NCBI GenBank assembly: GCA_036149055.1
Contig: JAYZQJ010000182.1
Span: forward strand, 32,001-96,000
Source: Myxococcota bacterium
GTDB taxonomy: Bacteria > Myxococcota_A > Polyangia > Polyangiales > Sandaracinaceae
Direction: 5' to 3'
Length of the DNA: 64,000 nucleotides
Shown here: one piece after another, positions 3,155 to 51,758 of the stretch
Numbering within the stretch: the stretch's first letter is position 1
How the letters are laid out: every line of letters starts with the position of its first letter
Translations under genes and position numbers: made by a program
Notes under the pieces: generated by a model
Database searches by the model: none
What the model saw: only the letters and a program-made list of their open reading frames with translations
What the model was told of the DNA's origin: nothing

Positions 3155-3889
3155 TCACTCGAGGCGTTTGGCGAGGAAGAGCTCCTGCGCCTCGTAGGGA
3201 GGCTCGTGGGCGTGGATGAGCAGCTCGGGCTGGAAGCCGACCTCGCGCAGGAGGCGGAGCCAGCTCTCGCGGGAGAAGCAGCCGACGACGTGTCGGTCGT
3301 GCACCACGCGGACCTCGCCCCGGCCCTCTCGGAGGACGAAGACGTAGTCGCCCACGAAGGTGTCGTCGTCCGGATCGGGATCCCAGTCCCACTCCACGCA
3401 GCGCATCGCGCGGTCCTCGTCCTCCGCCTCGAAGACCTGCGTGCTCTCGACGAAGGTCTCCTTCACGAAGTCGGGCACGAAGAGGGCCGCGCCGCCGGGA
3501 TGGAGATGCGCGTGGGCGGTCTCCATCGCGCGCCGCAGGTCGTCCTCGCTGCGCATGTACATGACCGCGTCGTGCACCAGCACGAGGTCGAAGCGCTCGG
3601 TCAGCCGCAGCGCGCGCATGTCCCCGAGGTGGTGCGCGCACTCCGGGTTCAGCGCCTCGCTCAGCGCGAGCATCGAGGGCGCGAGGTCCGTGAGCGTGCA
3701 GCGGTAGCGCGCCTTCAGGTGGTAGGCGTTGTGCCCGGCGCCGCAGCCGAGCTCGAGCATGGTCTCGGCGTCGGGCGCCGCGCGCGCGAGCGCGTCCCCG
3801 TACATCGCCGCCTCCTCCGCGTACTCCTCCTTGGGCGTCAGCAGCGTGTACCAGGGCGCGAGCTCGTCGTAGAGGCGCGGGCCGGTCAC
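3155..3889 (-). CDS. Class I SAM-dependent methyltransferase
   Basis: MLELGCGAG motif I, GDMR, FDLVLVHDAVMY, LHPGG. Confidence 0.9.
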   Translation of the reverse strand: MTGPRLYDELAPWYTLLTPKEEYAEEAAMYGDALARAAPDAETMLELGCGAGHNAYHLKARYRCTLTDLAPSMLALSEALNPECAHHLGDMRALRLTERFDLVLVHDAVMYMRSEDDLRRAMETAHAHLHPGGAALFVPDFVKETFVESTQVFEAEDEDRAMRCVEWDWDPDPDDDTFVGDYVFVLREGRGEVRVVHDRHVVGCFSRESWLRLLREVGFQPELLIHAHEPPYEAQELFLAKRLE

Positions 3890-22192: not shown

Positions 22193-22229
22193 AACGCCCC
22201 GCGGCCCACGCCGCGGGGCGTTTCGCGTT
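22193..22229 (+). terminator. Intrinsic terminator of nrdJ
   Basis: Perfect 13-bp stem AACGCCCCGCGGC-CCAC-GCCGCGGGGCGTT followed by T-rich tail. Confidence 0.75.
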
Positions 22230-22456
22230 TCCCATCGCTCGCGTCGAACAGTTGGCTCTCGCCAAGCCGCAAAGCCGCAAAGAAGAGAGCAGGCGACGGG
22301 ACGGCAGCTCGCCGCCCCCTCCACCACCGCCCACGCCGCGGGGCGTTTCGCGTTTCCCATCGCTCGCGTCGAACAACGGGCTCTCGCCAAGCCGCAAAGC
22401 CGCAAAGAAAAGAGCAGGCGACGGGACGGCAGCTCGCCGCCCCGTCCACGACCGCC
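22204..22456. repeat. 125-bp tandem duplication
   Basis: Unit beginning GCCCACGCCGCGGGGCGTTTCGCG at 22204 recurs at 22329 with few mismatches. Confidence 0.9.
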
Positions 22457-22542
22457 AGGCCGCGCAAGGCGAGGGGGAACCCGCCGGCGAGCCTCCATCC
22501 CGCGGCCCCCAGCCCCTTTGCGCCTTTGCGCCTTTGCGAGAG
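22381..22542. repeat. REP/MITE-like element with 27-nt terminal inverted repeats
   Basis: CTCTCGCCAAGCCGCAAAGCCGCAAAG (22381-22407) vs CTTTGCGCCTTTGCGCCTTTGCGAGAG (22516-22542). Confidence 0.75.
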
Positions 22543-36897: not shown

Positions 36898-37016
36898 GCG
36901 AGCGTAGGCGGAACCCGTCAGAGCCTGACATCGATGTCGCAGCTCCCGGACCAGAGTCGATCCGCGCTGACTGGAATCAACGCAGATCTGCCCCGATCTC
37001 GGGGATCCGGGGTGAG

Positions 37017-37032
37017 TGGCACCGCGATTGCA
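37017..37032 (+). promoter_or_regulatory. Sigma54 -24/-12 promoter
   Basis: TGGCACCGCGATTGCA, close to consensus TGGCAC-N5-TTGCA. Confidence 0.8.
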
Positions 37033-37044
37033 CTGAGGAGGCTC

Positions 37045-37608
37045 GTGACCCGAGCCGTTCTCGCGCTCGCGATGACCCCCGTGATGAGCAGCTGCGTACT
37101 CCTCAGCCCCCCGAACTACGACGACCCGCCCGACCTGCCTTCCCAGGTGTTCGGGCGCGGCGAGAGTCAGATGAGCGACATCGGGCGCATCGACCTCGAC
37201 CTCGCGGGCGGCGGCGGCGGCGACGCGGGCGAGGGCAACGAGGTCCGGCTCGAGGCGCTGGTGGTCGACCTGAACGTGACCCAGCCGCTCGTGGGCCAGG
37301 TCTTCCTGAACTACCGGCGCGACTCCGACCAGAACCTGCCTCTCGTCGAGGACCTGCCCATCCCGGTGTCGGGCGAGCGCGAGCGCTTCGTCAGCTTCTC
37401 CATCCCGCGCACCGAGCCCCGGCTCGAGGCCGGCCAGTGCTTCTCGGTGGAGCTGCACGTCGCGGCCCGCTTCGAGGGGCGCCGCAACCCGCGCCCGCCG
37501 GAGGGCGTGCCGCTCGCGGTCGGCCGCTGGTTCATCGAGGTCGTGAACTCCGAGACCCTCAGCGCTCCCGCGGGCACCTGCGGCGAGGGGAGGTTCGGAG
37601 ACCCGTGA
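37045..37608 (+). CDS. Hypothetical lipoprotein
   Basis: GTG start then RAVLALAMTPVMSSC lipobox-like; overlaps next gene (GTGA). Confidence 0.65.
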   Translation: MTRAVLALAMTPVMSSCVLLSPPNYDDPPDLPSQVFGRGESQMSDIGRIDLDLAGGGGGDAGEGNEVRLEALVVDLNVTQPLVGQVFLNYRRDSDQNLPLVEDLPIPVSGERERFVSFSIPRTEPRLEAGQCFSVELHVAARFEGRRNPRPPEGVPLAVGRWFIEVVNSETLSAPAGTCGEGRFGDP

Positions 37609-39371
37609 GGCGCACGCTCTCCCAGGGCCTGCTCGGCCTCCTGCTGCTCGCCGGCGCCGGCGCCGGCTGCTCGGTCCTCGTGAGCGAGGGCCCGACGAAC
37701 GTCTGCGGCTCGGACGCGGACTGCCCGAGCGGCGCCTGCGACGCCGACCGCGGCATGTGCGTGGCGACCCCGAGCCGCGCCTATCGGGTCGGCCTCGAGG
37801 TCTACCCGGCGGCCGACCCGTTCGGTGGCAGCGTGGTGCCGGTGAGCTTCGAGCCGTTCGAGCTCGAGGCGACGACCGAGCGCGAGCTGGAGCTGCCGCT
37901 CGGCACCTCGACGATGGGGCACGTGCGCGACACCTCGACCGGCGCGTCGGTGACCGCGAGCCTGCGCCTCACGATGGTCAGCGCCATCCCCGGCGGGCCC
38001 AGCTTCGCCGTCGACGTGCAGTCGGAGTCGGAGACGATGGAGGACCCCCGCCGCGACGGCGAGGTGGTCAACTTCGCCACCCAGATCCTGCCGGGGCGCC
38101 GCTACCAGCTGGTCGTGCAGCCCACCGCGGCGTGGGTCGCCAAGCGGCCGCCGATCCGCCCGGGCACCGAGTACATGAGCCCCGAGGCGGGCGTCGCGCG
38201 CATCGACTTCCTCGCCTACCCCGACTTCTGCAGCACCCCCGAGCTGCTCGAGCCGCCGGAGGCCGGCTGCCTCGTCCGCGTCCGCGGCGTGGTCGTCGAC
38301 GCCGAGGGCGCCGAGCAGGACGGCCTGCTGCTCCGCGCGGTGACCGCGGGCGGGCGCGTGCTCAGCTCGACGATGACCACCGGCGAGGATCCGGAGCTCG
38401 GCGCCGGCCGGTTCGACCTGGTGATGTTCCACCGCGACTGGGCGAGCAGCGACGGCTGGTTCCTCGAGATCACCCCGAGCGGTGAGCGGATCGCGGCCGA
38501 CGGCCCGGCGCCGACCTTCACCGTCGACCCCGCCGGGCTCTTCGAGGACGCGGGCGTCGTGACCGTGCTGATGCCCACGCCGGCCGCCATCGTCACCTAC
38601 GAGGGCTGGGTCGAGAGTCGCGCGGGCGTCCCGGTCGACGGCGCGTCCCTCCGGTTCACCTCCACCGACGTCGTCGACGACGCCACCGGGGTGGTGGGCC
38701 GCTTCTCGGCCACCGCGACCACCGAGGCCGGCCGCTACTCGGTCCGCCTCCTGCCCGGCACCTACGACGTGATCGTCACCCCGCCGGCCCGCGAGTCCGG
38801 CCTCGCCGTGCTCCGCGAGTCGGGCGTCGTCATCACCGGGCCCGAGGGCTCGACCACGCTGGCCGGGCAGCTCTTCGAGATCCCGGAGCGCGTGCCCTTC
38901 GGCGGCACGGTGCGGACCACCATCGGCGAGGGCATGCTCGACGCCCAGGTCCGGGCCACCCCGCGCGGCACGACCTTCGGCGATCCGCCGGTCGAGGTGG
39001 CCCGCTTCGCCCGATCCGCAACCACGTCGACCGACCTCGACGGCCGCTTCGCCCTGCCCCTGGACGTGGGCGTCTACGACCTCGTCGTGGAGCCGCCGGC
39101 GGGCAGCAACTTCCCCTGGCTGGTCCTCCCCGACAACCCCGTCCGCTCCGACGTGCCCGTCACGAACGTGTACGATCTCCAGAACCCGGTGCTGCTCAGC
39201 GGCACGGCGCGGTTCGCGGGCGAAGGCGAGATGATCCCGGTGAACGGCGGTGAGATCCGCGCCTACGCCGTGCTCGAGGGAGACGACGGGCGCGAGCGGG
39301 CGGTGCAGATCGGTCGGGCCTCGATCGATCCCGAAGGCCGCTACACGCTGCTCCTCCCGCCGTCGATCTGA
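37605..39371 (+). CDS. Lipoprotein with Cys-rich N-terminus and carboxypeptidase-regulatory-like (CarboxypepD_reg) beta domains
   Basis: LLLLAGAGAGC lipobox; C.SDADCPSGAC; repeated T…GRY/F…L.PG.YD..V.PP motifs. Confidence 0.7.
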   Translation: MRRTLSQGLLGLLLLAGAGAGCSVLVSEGPTNVCGSDADCPSGACDADRGMCVATPSRAYRVGLEVYPAADPFGGSVVPVSFEPFELEATTERELELPLGTSTMGHVRDTSTGASVTASLRLTMVSAIPGGPSFAVDVQSESETMEDPRRDGEVVNFATQILPGRRYQLVVQPTAAWVAKRPPIRPGTEYMSPEAGVARIDFLAYPDFCSTPELLEPPEAGCLVRVRGVVVDAEGAEQDGLLLRAVTAGGRVLSSTMTTGEDPELGAGRFDLVMFHRDWASSDGWFLEITPSGERIAADGPAPTFTVDPAGLFEDAGVVTVLMPTPAAIVTYEGWVESRAGVPVDGASLRFTSTDVVDDATGVVGRFSATATTEAGRYSVRLLPGTYDVIVTPPARESGLAVLRESGVVITGPEGSTTLAGQLFEIPERVPFGGTVRTTIGEGMLDAQVRATPRGTTFGDPPVEVARFARSATTSTDLDGRFALPLDVGVYDLVVEPPAGSNFPWLVLPDNPVRSDVPVTNVYDLQNPVLLSGTARFAGEGEMIPVNGGEIRAYAVLEGDDGRERAVQIGRASIDPEGRYTLLLPPSI

Positions 39372-39483: not shown

Positions 39484-39513
39484 TGTAACCGACGCGGGGA
39501 TGTGGCGTAGAAT
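39484..39513 (+). promoter_or_regulatory. Candidate ECF-type promoter of the MNIO operon
   Basis: TGTAACC-N15-CGTA (also overlapping TAGAAT); resembles GTAACC-N16-CGAA SigF/ECF16 promoters. Confidence 0.4.
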
Positions 39514-39604
39514 GCGCGTCGACCTCAAAGTCGGTCGCCGCTGACGAGATGTCCTCGGGCGCGACCCATTCGAACAGAGAACTGTTGTTCGGGGAGAATT
39601 TGGA

Positions 39605-39895
39605 ATGAACACGAAGCTCAAGACCCAGCTGGTGGCGATTGCGGCTGCTTCTCTCGGTCTCGCGGCCTACGGCTGCGGTGGCGGCGACGCCGAGGCGGGT
39701 GGCGACACCGGCGGCGAAGAGGCCACCGGTGGTGGCGAGGCGTCCTGCTCGGGTGCCGGCGAGGCGTCCTGCTCGGGCGCTGGCGAGGCCTCCTGCTCCG
39801 GCGCCACCGAGGGTGGCGAGGACATGGGCGCCGAGGGTGACGAGGCTGGCGGCGAGGCGTCCTGTGGCGCTGGCAGCTGCGGCGCGGCCGAGTGA
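39605..39895 (+). CDS. RiPP precursor for DUF692/MNIO: signal peptide + GEASCSGA x3 + EASCGAGSCG
   Basis: MNTKLK…LGLAAYGC signal/lipobox; three 24-nt tandem repeats 39734-39805; immediately upstream of DUF692. Confidence 0.85.
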   Translation: MNTKLKTQLVAIAAASLGLAAYGCGGGDAEAGGDTGGEEATGGGEASCSGAGEASCSGAGEASCSGATEGGEDMGAEGDEAGGEASCGAGSCGAAE

Positions 39896-39935
39896 TCTGA
39901 GCCCCATCTCTCGCGCGATCACCGCGTGAGGCTCG

Positions 39936-39967
39936 TCGCGGGAGTTTCCGAAAGGGGGCTCCCGCGA
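39936..39967 (+). terminator. Stem-loop between precursor and MNIO gene (stabiliser/attenuator)
   Basis: TCGCGGGAGTTTCC-GAAA-GGGGGCTCCCGCGA, GNRA loop. Confidence 0.6.
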
Positions 39968-39991
39968 TGTGTTTAAGGCCCCGAACCAGTC

Positions 39992-40867
39992 ATGCTTCCC
40001 GTGATGAACGAAGTCGAAGGCATCGGCCTCGGGCTCCGCCACGACCTGGCGGAGGAGCTGCTCGAGCGTCGCCCGGACGAGGTCCGCTGGCTCGAGATCC
40101 ACCCCGAGAACTACGTCGCCCGCGGCGGGCTCTTCGCCCAGAACCTCGAGCGCGCGATGGAGACCTGGCGCCTGGTCCCGCACGGGCTCTCGCTCTGCCT
40201 CGGCACGGTCACCCCGTTCGACCCCGCCTACAAGAAGCAGCTCGCGGCGCTCCTCGATCGCGTCGGGGCCCCCTGGTACAGCGACCACCTCTGCTTCGCC
40301 GACGTCGACGGCAGCTTCCTCCACGATCTGCTCCCCCTGCCCTTCTCGAAGGAGACGGTGCAGACGGTGAAGGAGCGGGTCGACGAGGTGCAGCAGGCGA
40401 TCGGCCGGCCGGTCGCGGTCGAGAACATCAGCTTCTACGCCGACCCGGCGCCGCGCCGCGGCTGGACCGAGCCCGAGTTCCTCTGCGAGGTGCTCGAGGC
40501 GGCCGACTGCAAGCTCCTGCTCGACGTGAACAACGTCTACGTCAACAGCGTGAACCACGGCTTCGACCCCGAGCCCTACATCGACATGCTGCCCCACGAG
40601 CGCGTGGTGCAGATGCACGTGGCCGGGCACTTCACCCGCAAGGACGCGCTGATCATCGACACCCACGGCGAGCCGGTCTGCGACGGGGTCTACGCGCTGC
40701 TCGAGCACACCCTGGAGCGCACCGGGCCCCGGCCCGTGCTGCTGGAGCGCGACCAGAACATCCCGCCCCTCGACGAGCTGCTCGGCGAGGTGCGCCAGCT
40801 GACCGAGATCTACGAGCGCGCCACCGCACGGCACGCCGAGCTGCGCCACGGGGACGCCGCCGAGTGA
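39992..40867 (+). CDS. DUF692 family multinuclear non-heme iron oxidative enzyme (MNIO)
   Basis: GIGLGLR, WLEIHPENY, HGLSL, SDHL, HDLLPLP, ENIS, LLDVNNVYV, HVAGH, IDTHG, LERD. Confidence 0.95.
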   Translation: MLPVMNEVEGIGLGLRHDLAEELLERRPDEVRWLEIHPENYVARGGLFAQNLERAMETWRLVPHGLSLCLGTVTPFDPAYKKQLAALLDRVGAPWYSDHLCFADVDGSFLHDLLPLPFSKETVQTVKERVDEVQQAIGRPVAVENISFYADPAPRRGWTEPEFLCEVLEAADCKLLLDVNNVYVNSVNHGFDPEPYIDMLPHERVVQMHVAGHFTRKDALIIDTHGEPVCDGVYALLEHTLERTGPRPVLLERDQNIPPLDELLGEVRQLTEIYERATARHAELRHGDAAE

Positions 40868-41613
40868 GCGAGCTGGGCGACATCCAGCGCGCCTTCGCGC
40901 GCATGTGCTTCGACCGCGCCCCGGCCGACGCCGACCTCGACCGCCTCCACGGAGAGCGCGAGCGGTGGCTGATCTATCGCAGCATGGTGCGGAGCCGGCT
41001 GTTCGCCATGATGCGCAGCGGGCTGCCCAAGACGGCCGCGCTCCTCGGCGACGAGCGCTTCGACGCGGCGGTCGCCGACTACCTCGAGGCCCACACGCCC
41101 CGGACCCGGTTCATCCGCGAGGTCGTGCACGAGCTGGTCACCCACGCGCTGCCGGAGTGGGAGCGCGACCCGACGCTCCCGCACCTCGGCGACCTGGCGC
41201 GGTGGGAGGACACGAAGTGGCGAGTCGGCGCGATGGAGGAGCGGGAGGCGCCGGCCGAGGAGCTCGACTTCGAGCGGCCCGCGGTCATCAACCCGGTGCT
41301 CGAGACCCTCGAGGTCACCCACCGCGTGGACAAGGACCACCTCGCGCCGCCGACGCTCGACGAGCCTCACCTGATGCTCGTCTACCGCAAGCCGGGCGGC
41401 TCGCGGCTGTTCACCTACGTGCTCAACGACGTGGGCGCCCGCCTCTTCCGCGCCTGGTGCGCGCCGGATCGCAGCTGCGCCGACGGAGTGCGCGCGGTCC
41501 TCGAGGGGCTCGGCCGCGACAAGCCGACGCCGCGCTTCCTCGAGGGCATGGCGTCGGTGCTCGCGGACCTGGTGGCGCAGCGGGTGGTGCTCGGATCACC
41601 GCCGCGCTTGTAA
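40864..41613 (+). CDS. DUF2063/HvfC/BufC-type MNIO partner (RRE-containing)
   Basis: Q.AFA, RWLIYR, LPKTAALLGDERFDAAVADYL, DLARWE; GTGA overlap with MNIO. Confidence 0.8.
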   Translation: MSELGDIQRAFARMCFDRAPADADLDRLHGERERWLIYRSMVRSRLFAMMRSGLPKTAALLGDERFDAAVADYLEAHTPRTRFIREVVHELVTHALPEWERDPTLPHLGDLARWEDTKWRVGAMEEREAPAEELDFERPAVINPVLETLEVTHRVDKDHLAPPTLDEPHLMLVYRKPGGSRLFTYVLNDVGARLFRAWCAPDRSCADGVRAVLEGLGRDKPTPRFLEGMASVLADLVAQRVVLGSPPRL

Positions 41614-41753
41614 CGGCACCACCCTCCCATCGTATCCTCTGGGCGCCCGGGGAGGGGGGACCTCCGTGGGTGAATGCGAGCCGGCCGCGCTCCGTCGCAG
41701 GTGCGGCAGCCCGAGCGCGCGCCGGCCTGAACGACACAGCCCCCGAGGAGCCC

Positions 41754-42383
41754 ATGCGTACGACGATCCGCGTTTCCCTGATCCTGGCCGCGCTCACGCT
41801 CGGCCTCACCAGCCTGGCCTCGGCGCAGTCGCGCGAGTTCACCATTCGCAACGACGGTGGCAGCCGCATCCAGTTCATCTCGGACGCGCCCCTCGAGACG
41901 ATCACCGGCGTCAGCTCGCACGTGACCGGCACCGTGAACGTGAACCCGAGCGATCTGTCGAGCGCCCGCGGCACCATCCAGGTCCGGGTCGCCTCCATCC
42001 GCACCGGCGTCGACCTGCGCGACGAGCACCTCCGCGGCGACGGCTGGCTCGACGCCGAGCGCTACGAGAACGCGACCTTCGAGATCACCCGCGTCGAGGG
42101 CGCGAGCAGCCTGAGCCCCAACCAGACGACGCGGGTTCGCATCCACGGCCGCTTCTCGCTCCACGGCGTGACCCGCGACGTCGTCGCCAACGCGCGCGTC
42201 CGGCTCATCCCCCTCAACGACGAGCTCCGCGCCGCCCGCATCACCGGCGACGTCATCCGCGCCCAGGCCAGCTTCCGTGTGCAGCTCACCGACTACAACG
42301 TCTCGGTCCCGCTCCCGGTCCGCCTGAAGGTCGCGAACGAGATCCGCGTCAACGTGACGATCCGCGCGGTGGCCAGCGAGTAG
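41754..42383 (+). CDS. YceI family periplasmic lipid/polyisoprenoid-binding protein
   Basis: Signal peptide; SIRTGVDLRDEHL, WLDAE.Y..ATF, G.FSLHGVTRDV. Confidence 0.9.
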   Translation: MRTTIRVSLILAALTLGLTSLASAQSREFTIRNDGGSRIQFISDAPLETITGVSSHVTGTVNVNPSDLSSARGTIQVRVASIRTGVDLRDEHLRGDGWLDAERYENATFEITRVEGASSLSPNQTTRVRIHGRFSLHGVTRDVVANARVRLIPLNDELRAARITGDVIRAQASFRVQLTDYNVSVPLPVRLKVANEIRVNVTIRAVASE

Positions 42384-45256: not shown

Positions 45257-45478
45257 TCAGGGCAGCAGCCGCCGCACCCGCTCCGTCCACCGCGTCCAGA
45301 GGCCCGGTCGCGCGCGCTCGGTCCGGCGCGCGTCGACCCAGGCCCGCTTGGCCTGCAGCGTCTCCCGGACCCGGCGCGAGGTCTCCGGGTCGAGGCCCGG
45401 CGCGCAGCCCGCCTCGAGGCCCTGGAGCCACGCGTCTTGCTCGGCTTGCAGCCGCCGCCGCTTCTCATCCAGCGACAC
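45257..45478 (-). CDS. Small MNIO-associated protein (resembles ends of SCO6045-type C-terminal partner domain)
   Basis: LQAEQDAWLQGL.AG..PGLDP…TLQAKRA…PGLW.RW; overlaps DUF692 stop. Confidence 0.55.
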   Translation of the reverse strand: MSLDEKRRRLQAEQDAWLQGLEAGCAPGLDPETSRRVRETLQAKRAWVDARRTERARPGLWTRWTERVRRLLP

Positions 45479-46292
45479 GTCGCGCCTCCTCTCCGTCGCG
45501 TCGCCAGGCCGCGTCGATCGCGTCGAGCTCCTGGTAGAGGGCCTCGCGCGAGCCGAAGCCGTCGTCGCGCTCCAGCAGGGTCGGCAGGCGGAGCCCGCGC
45601 CGGGCGAGCGAGGCGAGCAGCGCGAGGGGCCCCTCCGACACGGGGTGCGCGTGGGTGTCGCGGTAGACTTCTCCGCACCACGCCCCGCCGGCCACGTGCA
45701 CGTAGGCGACGCGCTCGAGCGGGTAGCGGTCGAGCCACGCCTCGACGTCCCAGCCGAAGTTGAGGGCGTTGGCGTGGAGGTTGGAGACGTCGAGCAGGAG
45801 CTTGCAGCCGGTCCGCAGGGTCAGCGTGCGCAGGAAGCTCGCCTCGTCCATCGTTCCAGACGCCTCGTACAGCTGGGCGATGTTCTCGATCGCGATCGGC
45901 AGCCCGAGCGCGTCCTGGGCGCGCAGCACGTTGTCGACCACCACGTCGAGCGCGTCCGCGGTCCGGCGCACCGGCAGGAGGTGCTCGGTCTCGACCCCGC
46001 CGCCGCGCACGAAGGCCAGGTGCTCGCTGACGAAGGGCGCGTCGAGCCGGGTCGCCACCTCGCGCAGCCGGGCCAGGCGCCGGGGGCACGGCGGGTCGCC
46101 GCTGCCGAGGGAGAGCGAGACCCCGTGCGGGATGATCGGGACCCCGCGGTCGAGCAGCGCGCGCAGCGGCGCCGGGATCGGCCCGCGCGTCGGCACGCTC
46201 TCGGCGATGACCTCGGTGAGCGCGAGGTCCGCGCGCCGCTCGCACGCCCAGGCGGTCTCCGGGCGCCAGCCGAGCCCGACGCCCGGCCTCAC
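45465..46292 (-). CDS. Second DUF692 family MNIO
   Basis: GVGLGWR, EVIAE, PHGVSLSLG, SEHLAF, HLLP, ENIA, LLDVSNL.AN, HVAGG, DTH.H, LERD. Confidence 0.93.
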   Translation of the reverse strand: MRPGVGLGWRPETAWACERRADLALTEVIAESVPTRGPIPAPLRALLDRGVPIIPHGVSLSLGSGDPPCPRRLARLREVATRLDAPFVSEHLAFVRGGGVETEHLLPVRRTADALDVVVDNVLRAQDALGLPIAIENIAQLYEASGTMDEASFLRTLTLRTGCKLLLDVSNLHANALNFGWDVEAWLDRYPLERVAYVHVAGGAWCGEVYRDTHAHPVSEGPLALLASLARRGLRLPTLLERDDGFGSREALYQELDAIDAAWRRDGEEARRVAG

Positions 46293-47230
46293 GAGCAGCC
46301 CCCGCAGCCGCCGCACCCGCCGCCGCAGCCCCCGCCGCACCCGCCGCCGCAGCTCGAGCAGCTCGATCCGCAGCTCGAGCCGGACGAGATGAACCCGCTC
46401 GACGCCACCACCGGCGCCGGGAAGAAGGCCGGCAGCACCGCGAGGCCGCCGCCGAGCGCCGCCGCGCCGAACACCCCGGCGGCGAGCGCGACCTCGTGGC
46501 TCCCGAGCTGCTCGGGCGCGCTCCGGGCGGTGGCCTCGAGGGCGGCGTTCTCCGCCGCCAGATCCGAGAGCAGCGCGTCGGCCCGGGCGGTCCTCGCCTT
46601 GCGGCGCCGGACGAGGAGCGCGGCGACGATGGAGACCGCGACGAGGAAGAGCAGGAAGCCGATCGGTCGCCCGCGCGAGAGGCCGACCGCCATCTTGGCC
46701 AGGCCGAGCAGCGAGAGCCCGATCAGCGGCGCGCGCACGATCAGGTTCCGCATCCGCAGCTGGCTCTTGCTGAGCAGGAGCCCGAAGCCGCGGAGGGCGC
46801 GCTCGTTCTCGTCTCGCCACGCGGCGGCGGCCAGCTGGAGGTCGAGGCGCGACGCGCCGAGCTCGTCGGTCGCCGCCTGGAGCACGACGTGATCGAGGGG
46901 GTGCTCGCCCGCCGCGGCGACGGAGCCGCGATAGGTCCCGTCGGGCCGCGCGCCGCCGTGCGGCGTCTTCGTCCGGTACACGCGATCGTCGCGCATCTCG
47001 ATCAGCCCCCGGTGCATCAAGGCGGCGACGGAGGCGCTCAGCGCCCCGGCGAGGTCGCCGCGCAGGAGCGCGATCGCGTAGGGGTGCAGCCGGTCGCGGT
47101 CGGCGGCGGAGAGGCGCGAGCGGGGCCAGCCGACCAGCTCCACCCAGAACAGGCCCCAGACGACCCCGACCCCGAGGCCCAGCGCGAAGAGGAGGAGGAA
47201 CGCCGGCCCCTTCAGGTCGAGCGGGTTCAC
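46289..47230 (-). CDS. TIGR04222-type membrane protein with Cys/Gly-rich C-terminal tail
   Basis: NPLDLKGPAFL, LHPYAIALLRG, GL.RGRPIGFL; tail SSGSSCGSSCSSCGGGCGGGCGGGCGGCGGCS. Confidence 0.85.
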   Translation of the reverse strand: MNPLDLKGPAFLLLFALGLGVGVVWGLFWVELVGWPRSRLSAADRDRLHPYAIALLRGDLAGALSASVAALMHRGLIEMRDDRVYRTKTPHGGARPDGTYRGSVAAAGEHPLDHVVLQAATDELGASRLDLQLAAAAWRDENERALRGFGLLLSKSQLRMRNLIVRAPLIGLSLLGLAKMAVGLSRGRPIGFLLFLVAVSIVAALLVRRRKARTARADALLSDLAAENAALEATARSAPEQLGSHEVALAAGVFGAAALGGGLAVLPAFFPAPVVASSGFISSGSSCGSSCSSCGGGCGGGCGGGCGGCGGCS

Positions 47231-49772: not shown

Positions 49773-51758
49773 TCAGGGGCAGACGAACTCGGAGCCCGCC
49801 GGGCCCGGTCGGCTACAGGACAGCGACGCACCGCAGTCGTCGTCGCTCGTGCAGGGCTGACCGGCGCGCTCACCGATCACGCAGGTCCGGCCGCCCGCGT
49901 AGCGGCAGAGCGGCGGGCAGACGCGCGTGCCGTCGGGGTTCCGGGCCGGGGTGCAGACGACGCTGCCGGGCTCGGTCTCCTCGAAGCAGTCGTCGTAGGT
50001 CATGCCGTCCGGCACCGCGACCGCGCGCGGGTTGTGGTTGCACTCCCAGTCTTCGCAGTCGGTGAACCCGTCGCGGTCCCCGTCGCGGCCGTCCATGCAG
50101 CTCCGCACGCTCATGGCCGCCTGCTCGGCGCAGGTCGCGGCCTGCACGGCCGAGCCCTCCTGGAAGTTCGAGTCCTCGTTGGCGAAGACGCTCTCCGCGC
50201 ACGGGCCGCGGATCGACAGGCACTGGCCGTCGAAGCAGGAGTCACCGGCCGGGCAGTCCGCGTCGGCGGTGCAGTGCTGTCGGCAGAGGTTCCGGAAGCC
50301 GCCGCCGGCGGACACCCGGTCGCAGGTCCAGCCGCTCGGGCAGTCCGGATCGGAGTTGCACGGGGCGCCGCAGACACCCTCGAGGCACTGGGTCGGCGAC
50401 GGGCAGTCGGCCGGGCCATCGCAGAAGCGCGTGCCGAGCACGAAGGTCTGGAATCGGCACGAGAAGTCCGCGCAGTCGGTGAAGCCGTTCTCGTCGTTGT
50501 CGACGCCGTCGATGCAGCGCTCGAAGGTCGTCTCGCTGGTCAGCGCGCAGAACTCGACCGCGTCCGGGTCGCCGTCGCGCGAGCAGGAGAAGTCGCCGCA
50601 GTCGGTGAAGCCGTCGCTGTCGTTGTCCTCACCGTCCATGCACTCGGCGAGGGTGCTCTCCTGGGCGTCGGCGCAGAACGCGGCCACCGCCGGGTCGGCG
50701 CCGGAGCCGACGTCGTTGCAGGAGAAGTCCTCGCAGTCCGGGAAGCCGTCGAAGTCGTCGTCGATCCCGTTGGTGCACTCGGCCATCGTCCGCTCCTGGC
50801 CGCAGCTCGGGTCGCTGCTGCAGTCGCGGTCGGCGCAGTCGGTGTTCCCGTCCGCGTCGTCGTCCTCGCCGTTGGTGCAGTTCTCGTCGGGCCGGCTGGC
50901 GCAGAACATGACCGCGGCCGGCGTCGCGCCGCGGCTCTCCATCGTGCAGGAGAAGTCGCCGCAGTCGGTGAAGCCGTTGCCGTCGTTGTCGTTGCCGTCC
51001 GAGCAGAGCTCGAGGGTGTGCTCGGGGCCCTGGCAGCGGGGGGCGTCGTAGCAGCTCGGGTCGGCGCAGTCGGTGCGGCCGTTGCCGTTGTCGTCGACCA
51101 TGTCGCCGCAGTCCGCCTCCGGCGGGCAGGACGGGGTGCCCTGGCAGCCCGGGTCGAAGCAGTCGCGGAGGCCGTCCATGTCGTCGTCGACGCCGTTGTC
51201 GCAGATCTCGAGGCTGCAGGCCGGGTCGTCGTCGCAGTCGTCGTCGCGGCAGTCGGCGAAGCGGTCGCCGTCGTCGTCGAGGCCGTTCGAGCAGTCGCGC
51301 TCGCGCTCGCACACCGTGACGAAGTCGTTGTTGCGGCAGCTGAAGTCCTGGCAGTCGGCGAAGCCGTTGCCGTCGTCGTCGATGCCGTTGCTGCAGGTCT
51401 CGTCGTCGACCTCGGTGAGGCAGCAGAGCTCCATGATCGCCTGGCAGCCGCGGTCGCCGCAGTCGAACTGGCCGTCCTCGTCGTCGTCGATGCCGTTGCT
51501 GCAGAGCTCGAAGGTGTTCTCGACGCCGAGCGGCGGCGTGAGCGGGATCTGCTCGCCGCAGTGCCCGTTCATCAGGCAGTCGGAGTCCTGGCAGTCGATG
51601 CGGCCGTCCTGGTCGTCGTCGCGACCGTTGGCGCAGCTGAGCTCGTCGGTCTCGTAGCCGGCCGGCGGCGGGCGATCGATGACTCCGTCACCGTCGAAGT
51701 CGAGCGTGAAGCAGCCGCCCGCCGTCAGGGCGAGCACGATGGGGAGCGCGCGACGCAT
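49773..51758 (-). CDS. Cys/Asp-rich repeat lipoprotein (12 putative Ca-binding repeats)
   Basis: LTAGGC lipobox; 12 copies of CxN/DGxDD/NDxD/NGxxDCxDxxC plus EGF-like Cys clusters. Confidence 0.85.
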   Translation of the reverse strand: MRRALPIVLALTAGGCFTLDFDGDGVIDRPPPAGYETDELSCANGRDDDQDGRIDCQDSDCLMNGHCGEQIPLTPPLGVENTFELCSNGIDDDEDGQFDCGDRGCQAIMELCCLTEVDDETCSNGIDDDGNGFADCQDFSCRNNDFVTVCERERDCSNGLDDDGDRFADCRDDDCDDDPACSLEICDNGVDDDMDGLRDCFDPGCQGTPSCPPEADCGDMVDDNGNGRTDCADPSCYDAPRCQGPEHTLELCSDGNDNDGNGFTDCGDFSCTMESRGATPAAVMFCASRPDENCTNGEDDDADGNTDCADRDCSSDPSCGQERTMAECTNGIDDDFDGFPDCEDFSCNDVGSGADPAVAAFCADAQESTLAECMDGEDNDSDGFTDCGDFSCSRDGDPDAVEFCALTSETTFERCIDGVDNDENGFTDCADFSCRFQTFVLGTRFCDGPADCPSPTQCLEGVCGAPCNSDPDCPSGWTCDRVSAGGGFRNLCRQHCTADADCPAGDSCFDGQCLSIRGPCAESVFANEDSNFQEGSAVQAATCAEQAAMSVRSCMDGRDGDRDGFTDCEDWECNHNPRAVAVPDGMTYDDCFEETEPGSVVCTPARNPDGTRVCPPLCRYAGGRTCVIGERAGQPCTSDDDCGASLSCSRPGPAGSEFVCP

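Follow-up and report, generated by a model that had tools for sequence, protein, structure and literature searches.

All characterized pairs of an oxidative enzyme dependent on multinuclear nonheme iron (MNIO; DUF692) and a PME1 (DUF2063) partner are reported to install 5-thiooxazoles, and their products generally bind copper (PMC13097082). In Neisseria dentiae, the NedABC system yields NedA, a lipidated EGKCG-type oxazolin that was made and characterized in 2026 as a diacylglycerol-anchored peptide of ribosomal synthesis and posttranslational modification (DAG-RiPP); NedA is triacylated and loses 4 Da at each motif, 12 Da in total (PMC13056109). Related systems are oxazolin HvfABC(X), fontiphorin FonABC, and gonophorin (PMC13097082), bulbicupramide MmrABC (PMC12538549), and bufferins 1 and 2 of Caulobacter vibrioides (10.1101/2024.03.18.585515; PMC12452194). 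Here we describe a locus at positions 39484 to 41613 of a 64,000-nt stretch of DNA (the window) from a Myxococcota bacterium of the Sandaracinaceae (assembly GCA_036149055.1, contig JAYZQJ010000182.1, positions 32,001 to 96,000), in which genes for a small Cys-containing precursor, an MNIO, and a DUF2063 protein follow one another. With a probability of roughly 0.6, we read this operon as encoding a diacylglycerol-anchored, acidic 5-thiooxazole copper chelator, or captophorin; the chemistry and the anchor are proposed because of homology with FonABC, HvfABC, and NedABC, and copper is proposed from precedent alone.

The precursor gene (39605 to 39895, + strand, GGAG upstream) encodes 96 residues that comprise a basic N terminus, a hydrophobic stretch, Cys24, and an acidic Gly/Glu-rich linker, followed by GEASCSGA in three copies and the terminal motif GEASCGAGSCG. 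Residues 1 to 23 together with Cys24 (39605 to 39676) form a predicted type II signal peptide with a lipobox-like AYGC, cleaved before the Cys, which probably also serves as a recognition leader. The five core cysteines lie in the repeats (Cys48, Cys56, and Cys64, predicted modification sites; residues 44 to 67, 39734 to 39805) and in the terminal double motif (Cys87 and Cys92; 39851 to 39883), the Ser-for-Lys counterpart of EGKCGEGKCG. The predicted mature part contains 16 Asp or Glu residues and neither Lys nor Arg. An initial annotation, made from the letters of the window, had described an acidic Gly-rich precursor of this length with a signal ending in AYGC and a terminal EASCGAGSCG, as the open reading frame (ORF) confirms; it had also described three exact GEASCSGA repeats and 24-nt tandem repeats in the DNA. 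The repeats are indeed tandem in DNA and identical in protein; the DNA units share 87% identity and differ at synonymous sites. Because substitutions relative to eight relatives fall mostly at third codon positions of the 39605 frame, we take this frame as coding; an overlapping Arg-rich ORF (39639 to 39929) was ruled out as a gene on the same grounds. No Pfam or NCBIfam model, DUF2282 included, matches the window precursor, which displays a repeat architecture instead of a DUF2282 domain or the six-Cys pattern of Buf2. RNA contigs from four runs of three studies overlap the gene, and in run X1 the contigs within it are far deeper than their neighbors, although such contigs can neither show transcription nor rank genes and are taken as a hint only.

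The next gene encodes an MNIO of 291 residues, HvfB/BufB-like (39992 to 40867, + strand; PF05114, 325 bits), and its stop is overlapped by the GTG start of a 249-residue DUF2063 protein (PME1, HvfC-like; 40864 to 41613, + strand; PF09836, 51.9 bits, over the cutoff). The intact enzyme and its DUF2063-type partner are thus as first annotated. The partner aligns with the HvfC model NF050145 over residues 8 to 244 (E value of 1e-16), scoring 61.6 bits against a cutoff of 142, and its match to NGO1945_C is weak (E value of 0.038).

To place the locus in its family, 110 loci were collected through their MNIO genes; 93 were of Myxococcota type, of which 9 with less than 600 nt upstream were dropped. 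A precursor gene lies directly upstream of the MNIO gene in 77 of the remaining 84 loci, and 72 of these precursors are distinct, the window's own included. Since the relatives are kin, family counts given here measure conservation and are not statistical tests. The seven misses include a frame-broken precursor (L049), a precursor placed downstream (L088), and four loci with a TANGO2-like gene in the precursor position, L083 being the one scanned. For L004, L080, and L084 the precursor was found elsewhere in the genome, while no precursor was found in the L083 genome and only a weak match in that of L090. A separate protein search gave 113 precursor homologues, all of them unnamed, hypothetical, or annotated as low-complexity, and, among 121 genomes sampled from the order, 74 (one of them, G601, unpublished) contain a match to the precursor profile. 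The initial annotation as an MNIO RiPP locus is supported.

Some members of the family depart from this layout. L036, L037, and L038 carry two precursor genes in tandem ahead of one MNIO gene (about 3180 to 3870). In L080, L083, L084, and L090 a TANGO2/NRDE-like gene replaces the precursor before the MNIO gene, with a YceI gene still downstream in three of them, and the precursors of the L080 and L084 genomes are located at L204, L206, and L208. Paralogous MNIOs of related genomes, at L136 to L139 and L181, form a clade of their own and stand behind lipobox precursors with DAGC or AGCP repeats.

Across the family, 314 core cysteines define the consensus E-[GA]-S-C-[GS]: Glu stands at −3 in 265, Gly or Ala at −2 in 287, Ser at −1 in 255 (Lys in 8), and Gly at +1 in 237. 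None of the five core cysteines of the window precursor lies in a Lys-Cys (EGKCG) repeat. In 45 aligned precursors, Cys87 and Gly88 of the terminal motif are invariant, and Ser86, Gly90, Ser91, and Cys92 are at least 90% conserved. Two or more GEASCSG repeats occur in 9 of 88 family rows, and EASCS is limited to 11 of the 88. One relative, L010, is purely Lys-Cys (EAKCGEGKCGEGKCG), L012 mixes Lys-Cys and Ser-Cys repeats, and the HvfA model NF050137 matches 7 of 45 family members (E values up to 0.05, the best being 1e-10). Data set S2 of PMC13097082 contains EGSCG 922 times and EASCG 68 times; EASCS has no occurrence in that data set. Among 50 EASCG occurrences examined, nearly all lie in precursors that also bear Lys-Cys repeats, and none belongs to a myxobacterial-type precursor. 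The same data set includes, without a class flag, lipobox-bearing ORFs similar to the L029 group. As the family grades into EGKCG, and as EGSCG and EASCG are present in the published list, its motif is EGKCG with Ser substituted for Lys, and that list already holds, uncharacterized, parts of the broader family. In more distant Myxococcota loci (L184, L191, L088, L194, and L198 to L200), the residue before Cys varies further (EADCG, EGDCG, EKSCG, and ESKCG), and most of these loci also have a lipobox-position Cys. The precursors of L056 and L063 are long, with 13 to 18 core cysteines, some of them in C-P and C-D contexts, which would be unfavorable under FonBC-type rules.

Compared with the described systems, the locus resembles NedABC in its type II signal, its E-x-x-C-G repeats, its MNIO and partner, and an order of events, shown for NedA and predicted here, in which cytoplasmic modification precedes lipidation. 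It differs from NedABC in that Ser replaces Lys ahead of Cys, that Ser also follows Cys at three sites, and that the mature part contains no basic residue; moreover, lipidation would be the rule in the Polyangia lineage, while it characterizes a subset of oxazolins and bufferins. With HvfABC(X), FonABC, gonophorin, and MmrABC the locus shares gene order and a PME1 partner, and FonABC likewise has no DoxX (PMC13097082). The Lys-Cys captophorins have the closest enzyme clade sampled, and E-[GA]-x-C-G pentamers and a terminal double motif are common to both, but Lys precedes 130 gammaproteobacterial core cysteines and only 9 in the Polyangia rows, where Ser precedes 303. Unlike the Lys-Cys captophorins, the window enzyme lacks the RR and DF signatures, its precursor lacks PF..GY, and the cutoffs of the HvfA, HvfB, and HvfC models are not reached. 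Polyangia peptides have a median net charge of −9, versus +1 for gammaproteobacterial ones. The Caulobacter bufferins are similar in MNIO−DUF2063 chemistry, Sec export, and an extracytoplasmic function (ECF)-type promoter; buf2 also has no DoxX (10.1101/2024.03.18.585515), and a lipoprotein signal is predicted for about 16% of Buf2 precursors (PMC12452194). Bufferins, however, fold into small proteins whose four or six cysteines follow a fixed pattern, in contrast to the low-complexity repeat peptide of the window, and Buf1 enzymes form a clade separate from the window enzyme. Two statements of the initial annotation about these systems need correction: it took the Caulobacter bufferins for EGKCG-repeat precursors, while BufA1 is a DUF2282 protein with four cysteines and BufA2 has six (10.1101/2024.03.18.585515), and the HvfA product that it named has since been revised to 5-thiooxazole (PMC13097082).

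In the enzyme, nine putative metal-site positions and Asp254, which appears to match the proposed catalytic base of FonB, are conserved in 84 to 85 of 85 family enzymes, and the first Arg (the FonB Arg15 equivalent) is kept in all 85; FonB numbering was mapped through motifs and an alignment to 3BWW. Enzyme trees were built with FastTree from 139 rows and with IQ-TREE from 56 rows picked by hand from the 139, Buf2 enzymes not being included. In the IQ-TREE analysis, the window enzyme lies inside a 25-row Polyangia clade (support 100/98). This clade and one of gammaproteobacterial HvfB-type MNIOs are united in a group of 41 rows (100/98), from which the Buf1 enzymes are separate. FastTree broadly agrees, although the joining node is weakly supported. 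The nearest named enzymes, from Sandaracinaceae bins, are 68 to 75% identical to the window MNIO. A predicted complex of MNIO, partner, two Fe, and precursor scored 0.70 against 0.54 for a control and is not used as evidence. The locus has three of the features expected of captophorins: an HvfB/BufB-group MNIO with its ligands and Asp, an adjacent PME1 protein (DUF2063 over the cutoff, with a weak match to the C-terminal domain of RiPP recognition element type), and a Cys-rich exported precursor upstream. Although it has none of the defining features of the Lys-Cys subgroup, the locus probably works like a captophorin and is probably a DAG-RiPP system.

The signal sequences point to a lipid anchor. 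In all 72 distinct precursors the first Cys falls at residue 20 to 33, after Ala or Gly, with ten uncharged residues ahead. By a permissive PROSITE-like pattern, 70 of the 72 pass all four lipoprotein criteria, versus none of 13 bufferin-1 controls; a Cys stands at a lipobox-like position in 72 of 72 and in 0 of 13, respectively. The pattern also matches 108 of the 113 database homologues, Cys24 is invariant in 45 of 45 aligned precursors, and a type II signal with an invariant lipobox Cys, as expected of a DAG-RiPP, is thus present by pattern. The genome encodes both Lgt and LspA. In this assembly (G000), there are seven Lgt-family matches on six contigs (C7, C19, C40, C74, C206, and C210) and two adjacent LspA genes on C206. 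The window peptide has Gly at +2 and Glu at +7 and so carries neither sorting residue reported for Myxococcus xanthus (PMC3222651); in 31 of 72 relatives, position +2 is occupied by Lys. For the window peptide, the outer membrane is our default guess for its destination. The lipoprotein anchor of the initial annotation is therefore probable, with the reservation that its AYGC lipobox is noncanonical.

The signal is also unusually conserved. Among L001, L031, L032, L035, and L039 (10 pairs), its identity is about 90%, whereas the MNIO reaches 73% and the YceI signal about 39% (L116 pairs left out); neighboring lipoproteins are a poor control here, being only 30 to 50% identical overall. For enzyme pairs matched at 60 to 80% identity, the first 22 residues are 65 to 88% identical in myxobacteria, 42 to 43% in gammaproteobacterial EGKCG precursors, and 52 to 60% in the few Buf1 pairs. 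The PF..GY motif that follows the signal in 18 of 24 gammaproteobacterial precursors occurs in none of 101 myxobacterial ones. Signal conservation and the absence of PF..GY fit a signal that acts as a leader, and the precursor signal probably doubles as the enzyme-recognition leader. The idea is not new, as it is reported for HvfA, which is barely modified without its signal, and cited for bufferin (10.64898/2026.07.17.739211).

Upstream, a promoter-like motif of ECF-sigma type, TGTAAC-N16-CGTA (equivalently, TGTAACC-N15-CGTA; 39484 to 39509, + strand), lies 121 nt before the precursor start, and a second copy (41609 to 41634, + strand) precedes a gene for a secreted YceI-like protein (41754 to 42383, + strand; PF04264, 96.6 bits); the motif and the YceI gene had both been annotated initially. 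These two are the only exact copies in the 9.9-Mb genome (73% GC), and a genome-wide excess at spacer 16 is not evident. Because other spacers also give 0 to 2 matches, the motif rests on conservation in relatives, not on the genome count: G[TA]AAC-N16-CG[TA]A is found in 43 of 79 family upstream regions, while any other spacer from 11 to 21 gives at most 5. Of the 12 distinct loci in which a YceI gene lies close by, 6 have the motif ahead of yceI. We infer that the window motif is an ECF promoter, with transcription predicted to start near 39516. Two intergenic stem-loops with 8-bp and 16-bp stems (39910 to 39969, + strand) confirm the annotated hairpin (z score of −4.25; none of 200 shuffles as stable), and among 86 myxobacterial loci the intergenic region folds with a z score under −2 in 75; in a scan for sigma-70 promoters and terminators, no promoter emerged and the hairpin was not called as an intrinsic terminator. 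The stem-loops likely stabilize or partly end the precursor transcript.

Among the 63 loci of Myxococcota type whose flanks, up to 4 kb long, were compared, only 11 have a YceI-like gene, so it was rejected as a core component; it is probably coregulated with the operon and lies outside the conserved core. The annotated absence of DoxX from the operon holds in the loci compared, the DoxX profile matching 0 of 123 Myxococcota loci versus 13 of 17 nonmyxobacterial ones, in a count where some loci are duplicates, 60 have 1.5-kb flanks only, and the profile was built in part from the controls. Outside the locus, the genome has three matches to DoxX. The conserved neighbors include no ECF or anti-sigma gene, unlike the Caulobacter SigF type with its linked sigF/nrsF, and those that can otherwise be named are housekeeping or signaling genes. 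About 4 kb away (45465 to 47194, − strand), the genome's only other MNIO gene (PF05114, 243 bits; 35% identical to the first) follows that of a TIGR04222 membrane protein with a Gly/Cys-rich tail, an association already known (PMC12452194). Upstream of the locus, and downstream of a sigma-54 activator gene, are two predicted lipoprotein genes of no named family (36934 to 37608 and about 37540 to 39371); they are syntenic in close relatives, and one has a weak carboxypeptidase-regulatory-like match. A repeat scan of the window found, at 22204 to 22464, a 125-nt tandem repeat (2.1 copies at 94% identity) and, at 50457 to 50697, one of 126 nt (1.9 copies).

The proposed captophorin pathway would run as follows. 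An ECF sigma factor would transcribe the operon, with the hairpin keeping precursor mRNA in excess, and the partner would bind the precursor through the signal peptide acting as a leader. In the cytoplasm, the MNIO and its partner would convert the five core cysteines to 5-thiooxazoles in an O2-dependent reaction (−4 Da per Cys). Sec export, attachment of diacylglycerol to Cys24, and cleavage by LspA would follow, and Gly at +2 may direct the peptide to the outer membrane, where the flexible acidic chain could bind excess copper in the envelope. Metal chelation, as initially annotated, is probable, and copper specifically comes from precedent alone. A broader scheme, which we regard as speculative and rather doubtful, would make the family a fourth, "Ser-Cys" specificity group of captophorins in which one N-terminal peptide combines the roles of enzyme leader, export signal for Sec, and lipobox; the Polyangia envelope would be coated with an abundant metal sponge of polyanionic thiooxazole peptide, facing outward with Gly at +2 and held at the inner membrane with Lys at +2, and the lipid-anchored form may predate the soluble EGKCG oxazolins. 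The tree places proteobacterial EGKCG oxazolin enzymes among Myxococcota lipoprotein-type enzymes, but their nesting inside Myxococcota is not established, as Myxococcota monophyly is not rejected (p-AU of 0.068).

Several observations weigh against the captophorin reading. The window precursor has no match to any family model, HvfA NF050137 among them, and the MNIO stays under the NCBIfam cutoffs (HvfB, 305.5 versus 360; BufB, 291 versus 310). The same biosynthesis and anchor might serve against another envelope stress, from thiophilic metals or oxidants, rather than against copper excess. No copper gene is found among the conserved neighbors, the secreted YceI gene carries the same promoter motif, published MNIO−PME1 clusters are also linked to oxidative stress and gold (PMC13097082), and the peptides have the strongly acidic charge given above. 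The motif, too, is not exactly the Caulobacter promoter to which the initial annotation likened it: the SigF site is GTAACC-N16-CGAA (PMC3511200), from which it departs at a single −10 base and by one base of spacer length, and the search for a cognate sigma factor gave a loose motif upstream of 3 of 59 sigma genes, none convincing. Nevertheless, characterized thiooxazole peptides generally bind copper (PMC13097082; 10.1101/2024.03.18.585515), and bufferin genes are induced by Cu, not by Fe, Zn, or Mn (10.1101/2024.03.18.585515), which makes a noncopper role unlikely, if worth keeping in view. A shift in enzyme specificity or chemistry, such that only the terminal Cys-Gly is converted or another product is formed, with the EASCS thiols left free or disulfide bonded, is suggested by the substrate and enzyme changes. 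FonBC is strict about the residue after Cys, every tested change except Ala being blocking (PMC13097082), and Ser follows Cys at three of the five core sites of the window; the EASCS context is confined to a few family rows and missing from Data set S2, and near-invariance is limited to the terminal motif. Two of the three FonB residues linked to substrate choice, Arg15, Arg16, and Phe250 (PMC13097082), have been lost: the Arg16 equivalent is Arg in 4 of 85 family enzymes (H17 in the window), and the Phe250 equivalent is Phe in 0 of 85 (Q255), while each is present in 16 of 17 gammaproteobacterial Lys-Cys enzymes. However, FonB variants R15A, R16A, F250A, and F250D still formed 5-thiooxazole (PMC13097082), because of which we read selectivity in the family as shifted rather than activity as lost; Gln occupies the Phe250-equivalent position in 10 of 13 Buf1 enzymes as well, the catalytic Asp is retained, Ser is small and similar to the tolerated Ala, and FonBC tolerates Ala, Arg, or Thr before Cys (PMC13097082). 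We therefore hold a changed chemistry to be improbable.

Two further alternatives concern the precursor itself. It may be modified without being lipidated, through signal peptidase I cleavage or as an uncleaved helix, Cys24 being kept for enzyme recognition. AYGC departs at −3 and −2 from the canonical L-[AST]-[GA]-C (PMC3222651), and most family lipoboxes have Thr, Ala, or Val at −3; the pattern applied was permissive, and because the whole signal is unusually conserved, Cys24 could belong to the leader. BufA1, on the other hand, was first reported to dispense with its signal (10.1101/2024.03.18.585515), which speaks against the leader role itself. The position of the Cys in all 72 precursors, amid varied flanks and ahead of a low-complexity polar linker, the absence of an E-x-x-C context around Cys24 like that of the core sites, and the proven lipidation of a class member, NedA (PMC13056109), leave this option quite improbable. 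The other alternative, in which the small protein is no enzyme substrate but just a common lipoprotein of low complexity, is scarcely credible: the 7 of 84 loci without an intact precursor directly upstream and the genomes that place precursors apart from the MNIO gene would agree with it, but the tight precursor−MNIO−partner order across the order, the conserved E-x-S-C-G motifs grading into EGKCG, and the tandem precursor copies of L036 to L038 do not. A diacylglycerol-anchored captophorin thus remains the reading that we prefer.

The initial annotation overstated the novelty of the locus, since the lipidated oxazolin NedA is published, EASCG and EGSCG occur in a published data set, and buf2 and fon loci without DoxX are known. 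One condition under which it would have withdrawn its claim, a motif family already characterized, thus applies to the concept and not to this lineage. A full-text literature search, which does not extend to supplements or most subscription journals, found no description of this myxobacterial family; EGSCG and EASCG had no main-text occurrence among the matches listed, and a term search of PMC12766979 gave no match. PMC12452194 reports hundreds of unclassified small precursors. What appears to be new is a putative, nearly all-lipoprotein Ser-Cys lineage with enzyme substitutions and an unusually conserved signal that probably doubles as leader. A specialist would find the locus plausible rather than surprising, since its class of chemistry, the idea of a lipid anchor, and its probable function are all described already.

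The family, large and unannotated in Polyangia and widespread in myxobacteria, would extend captophorins to a lineage in which lipid anchoring is the norm. Its natural variation around the modified cysteines, together with changes at two selectivity-linked enzyme positions, offers a direct test of the published specificity model, and its conserved type II signal provides a handle on whether signals of lipoprotein type can double as RiPP leaders, a role that has been reported for Sec signals.

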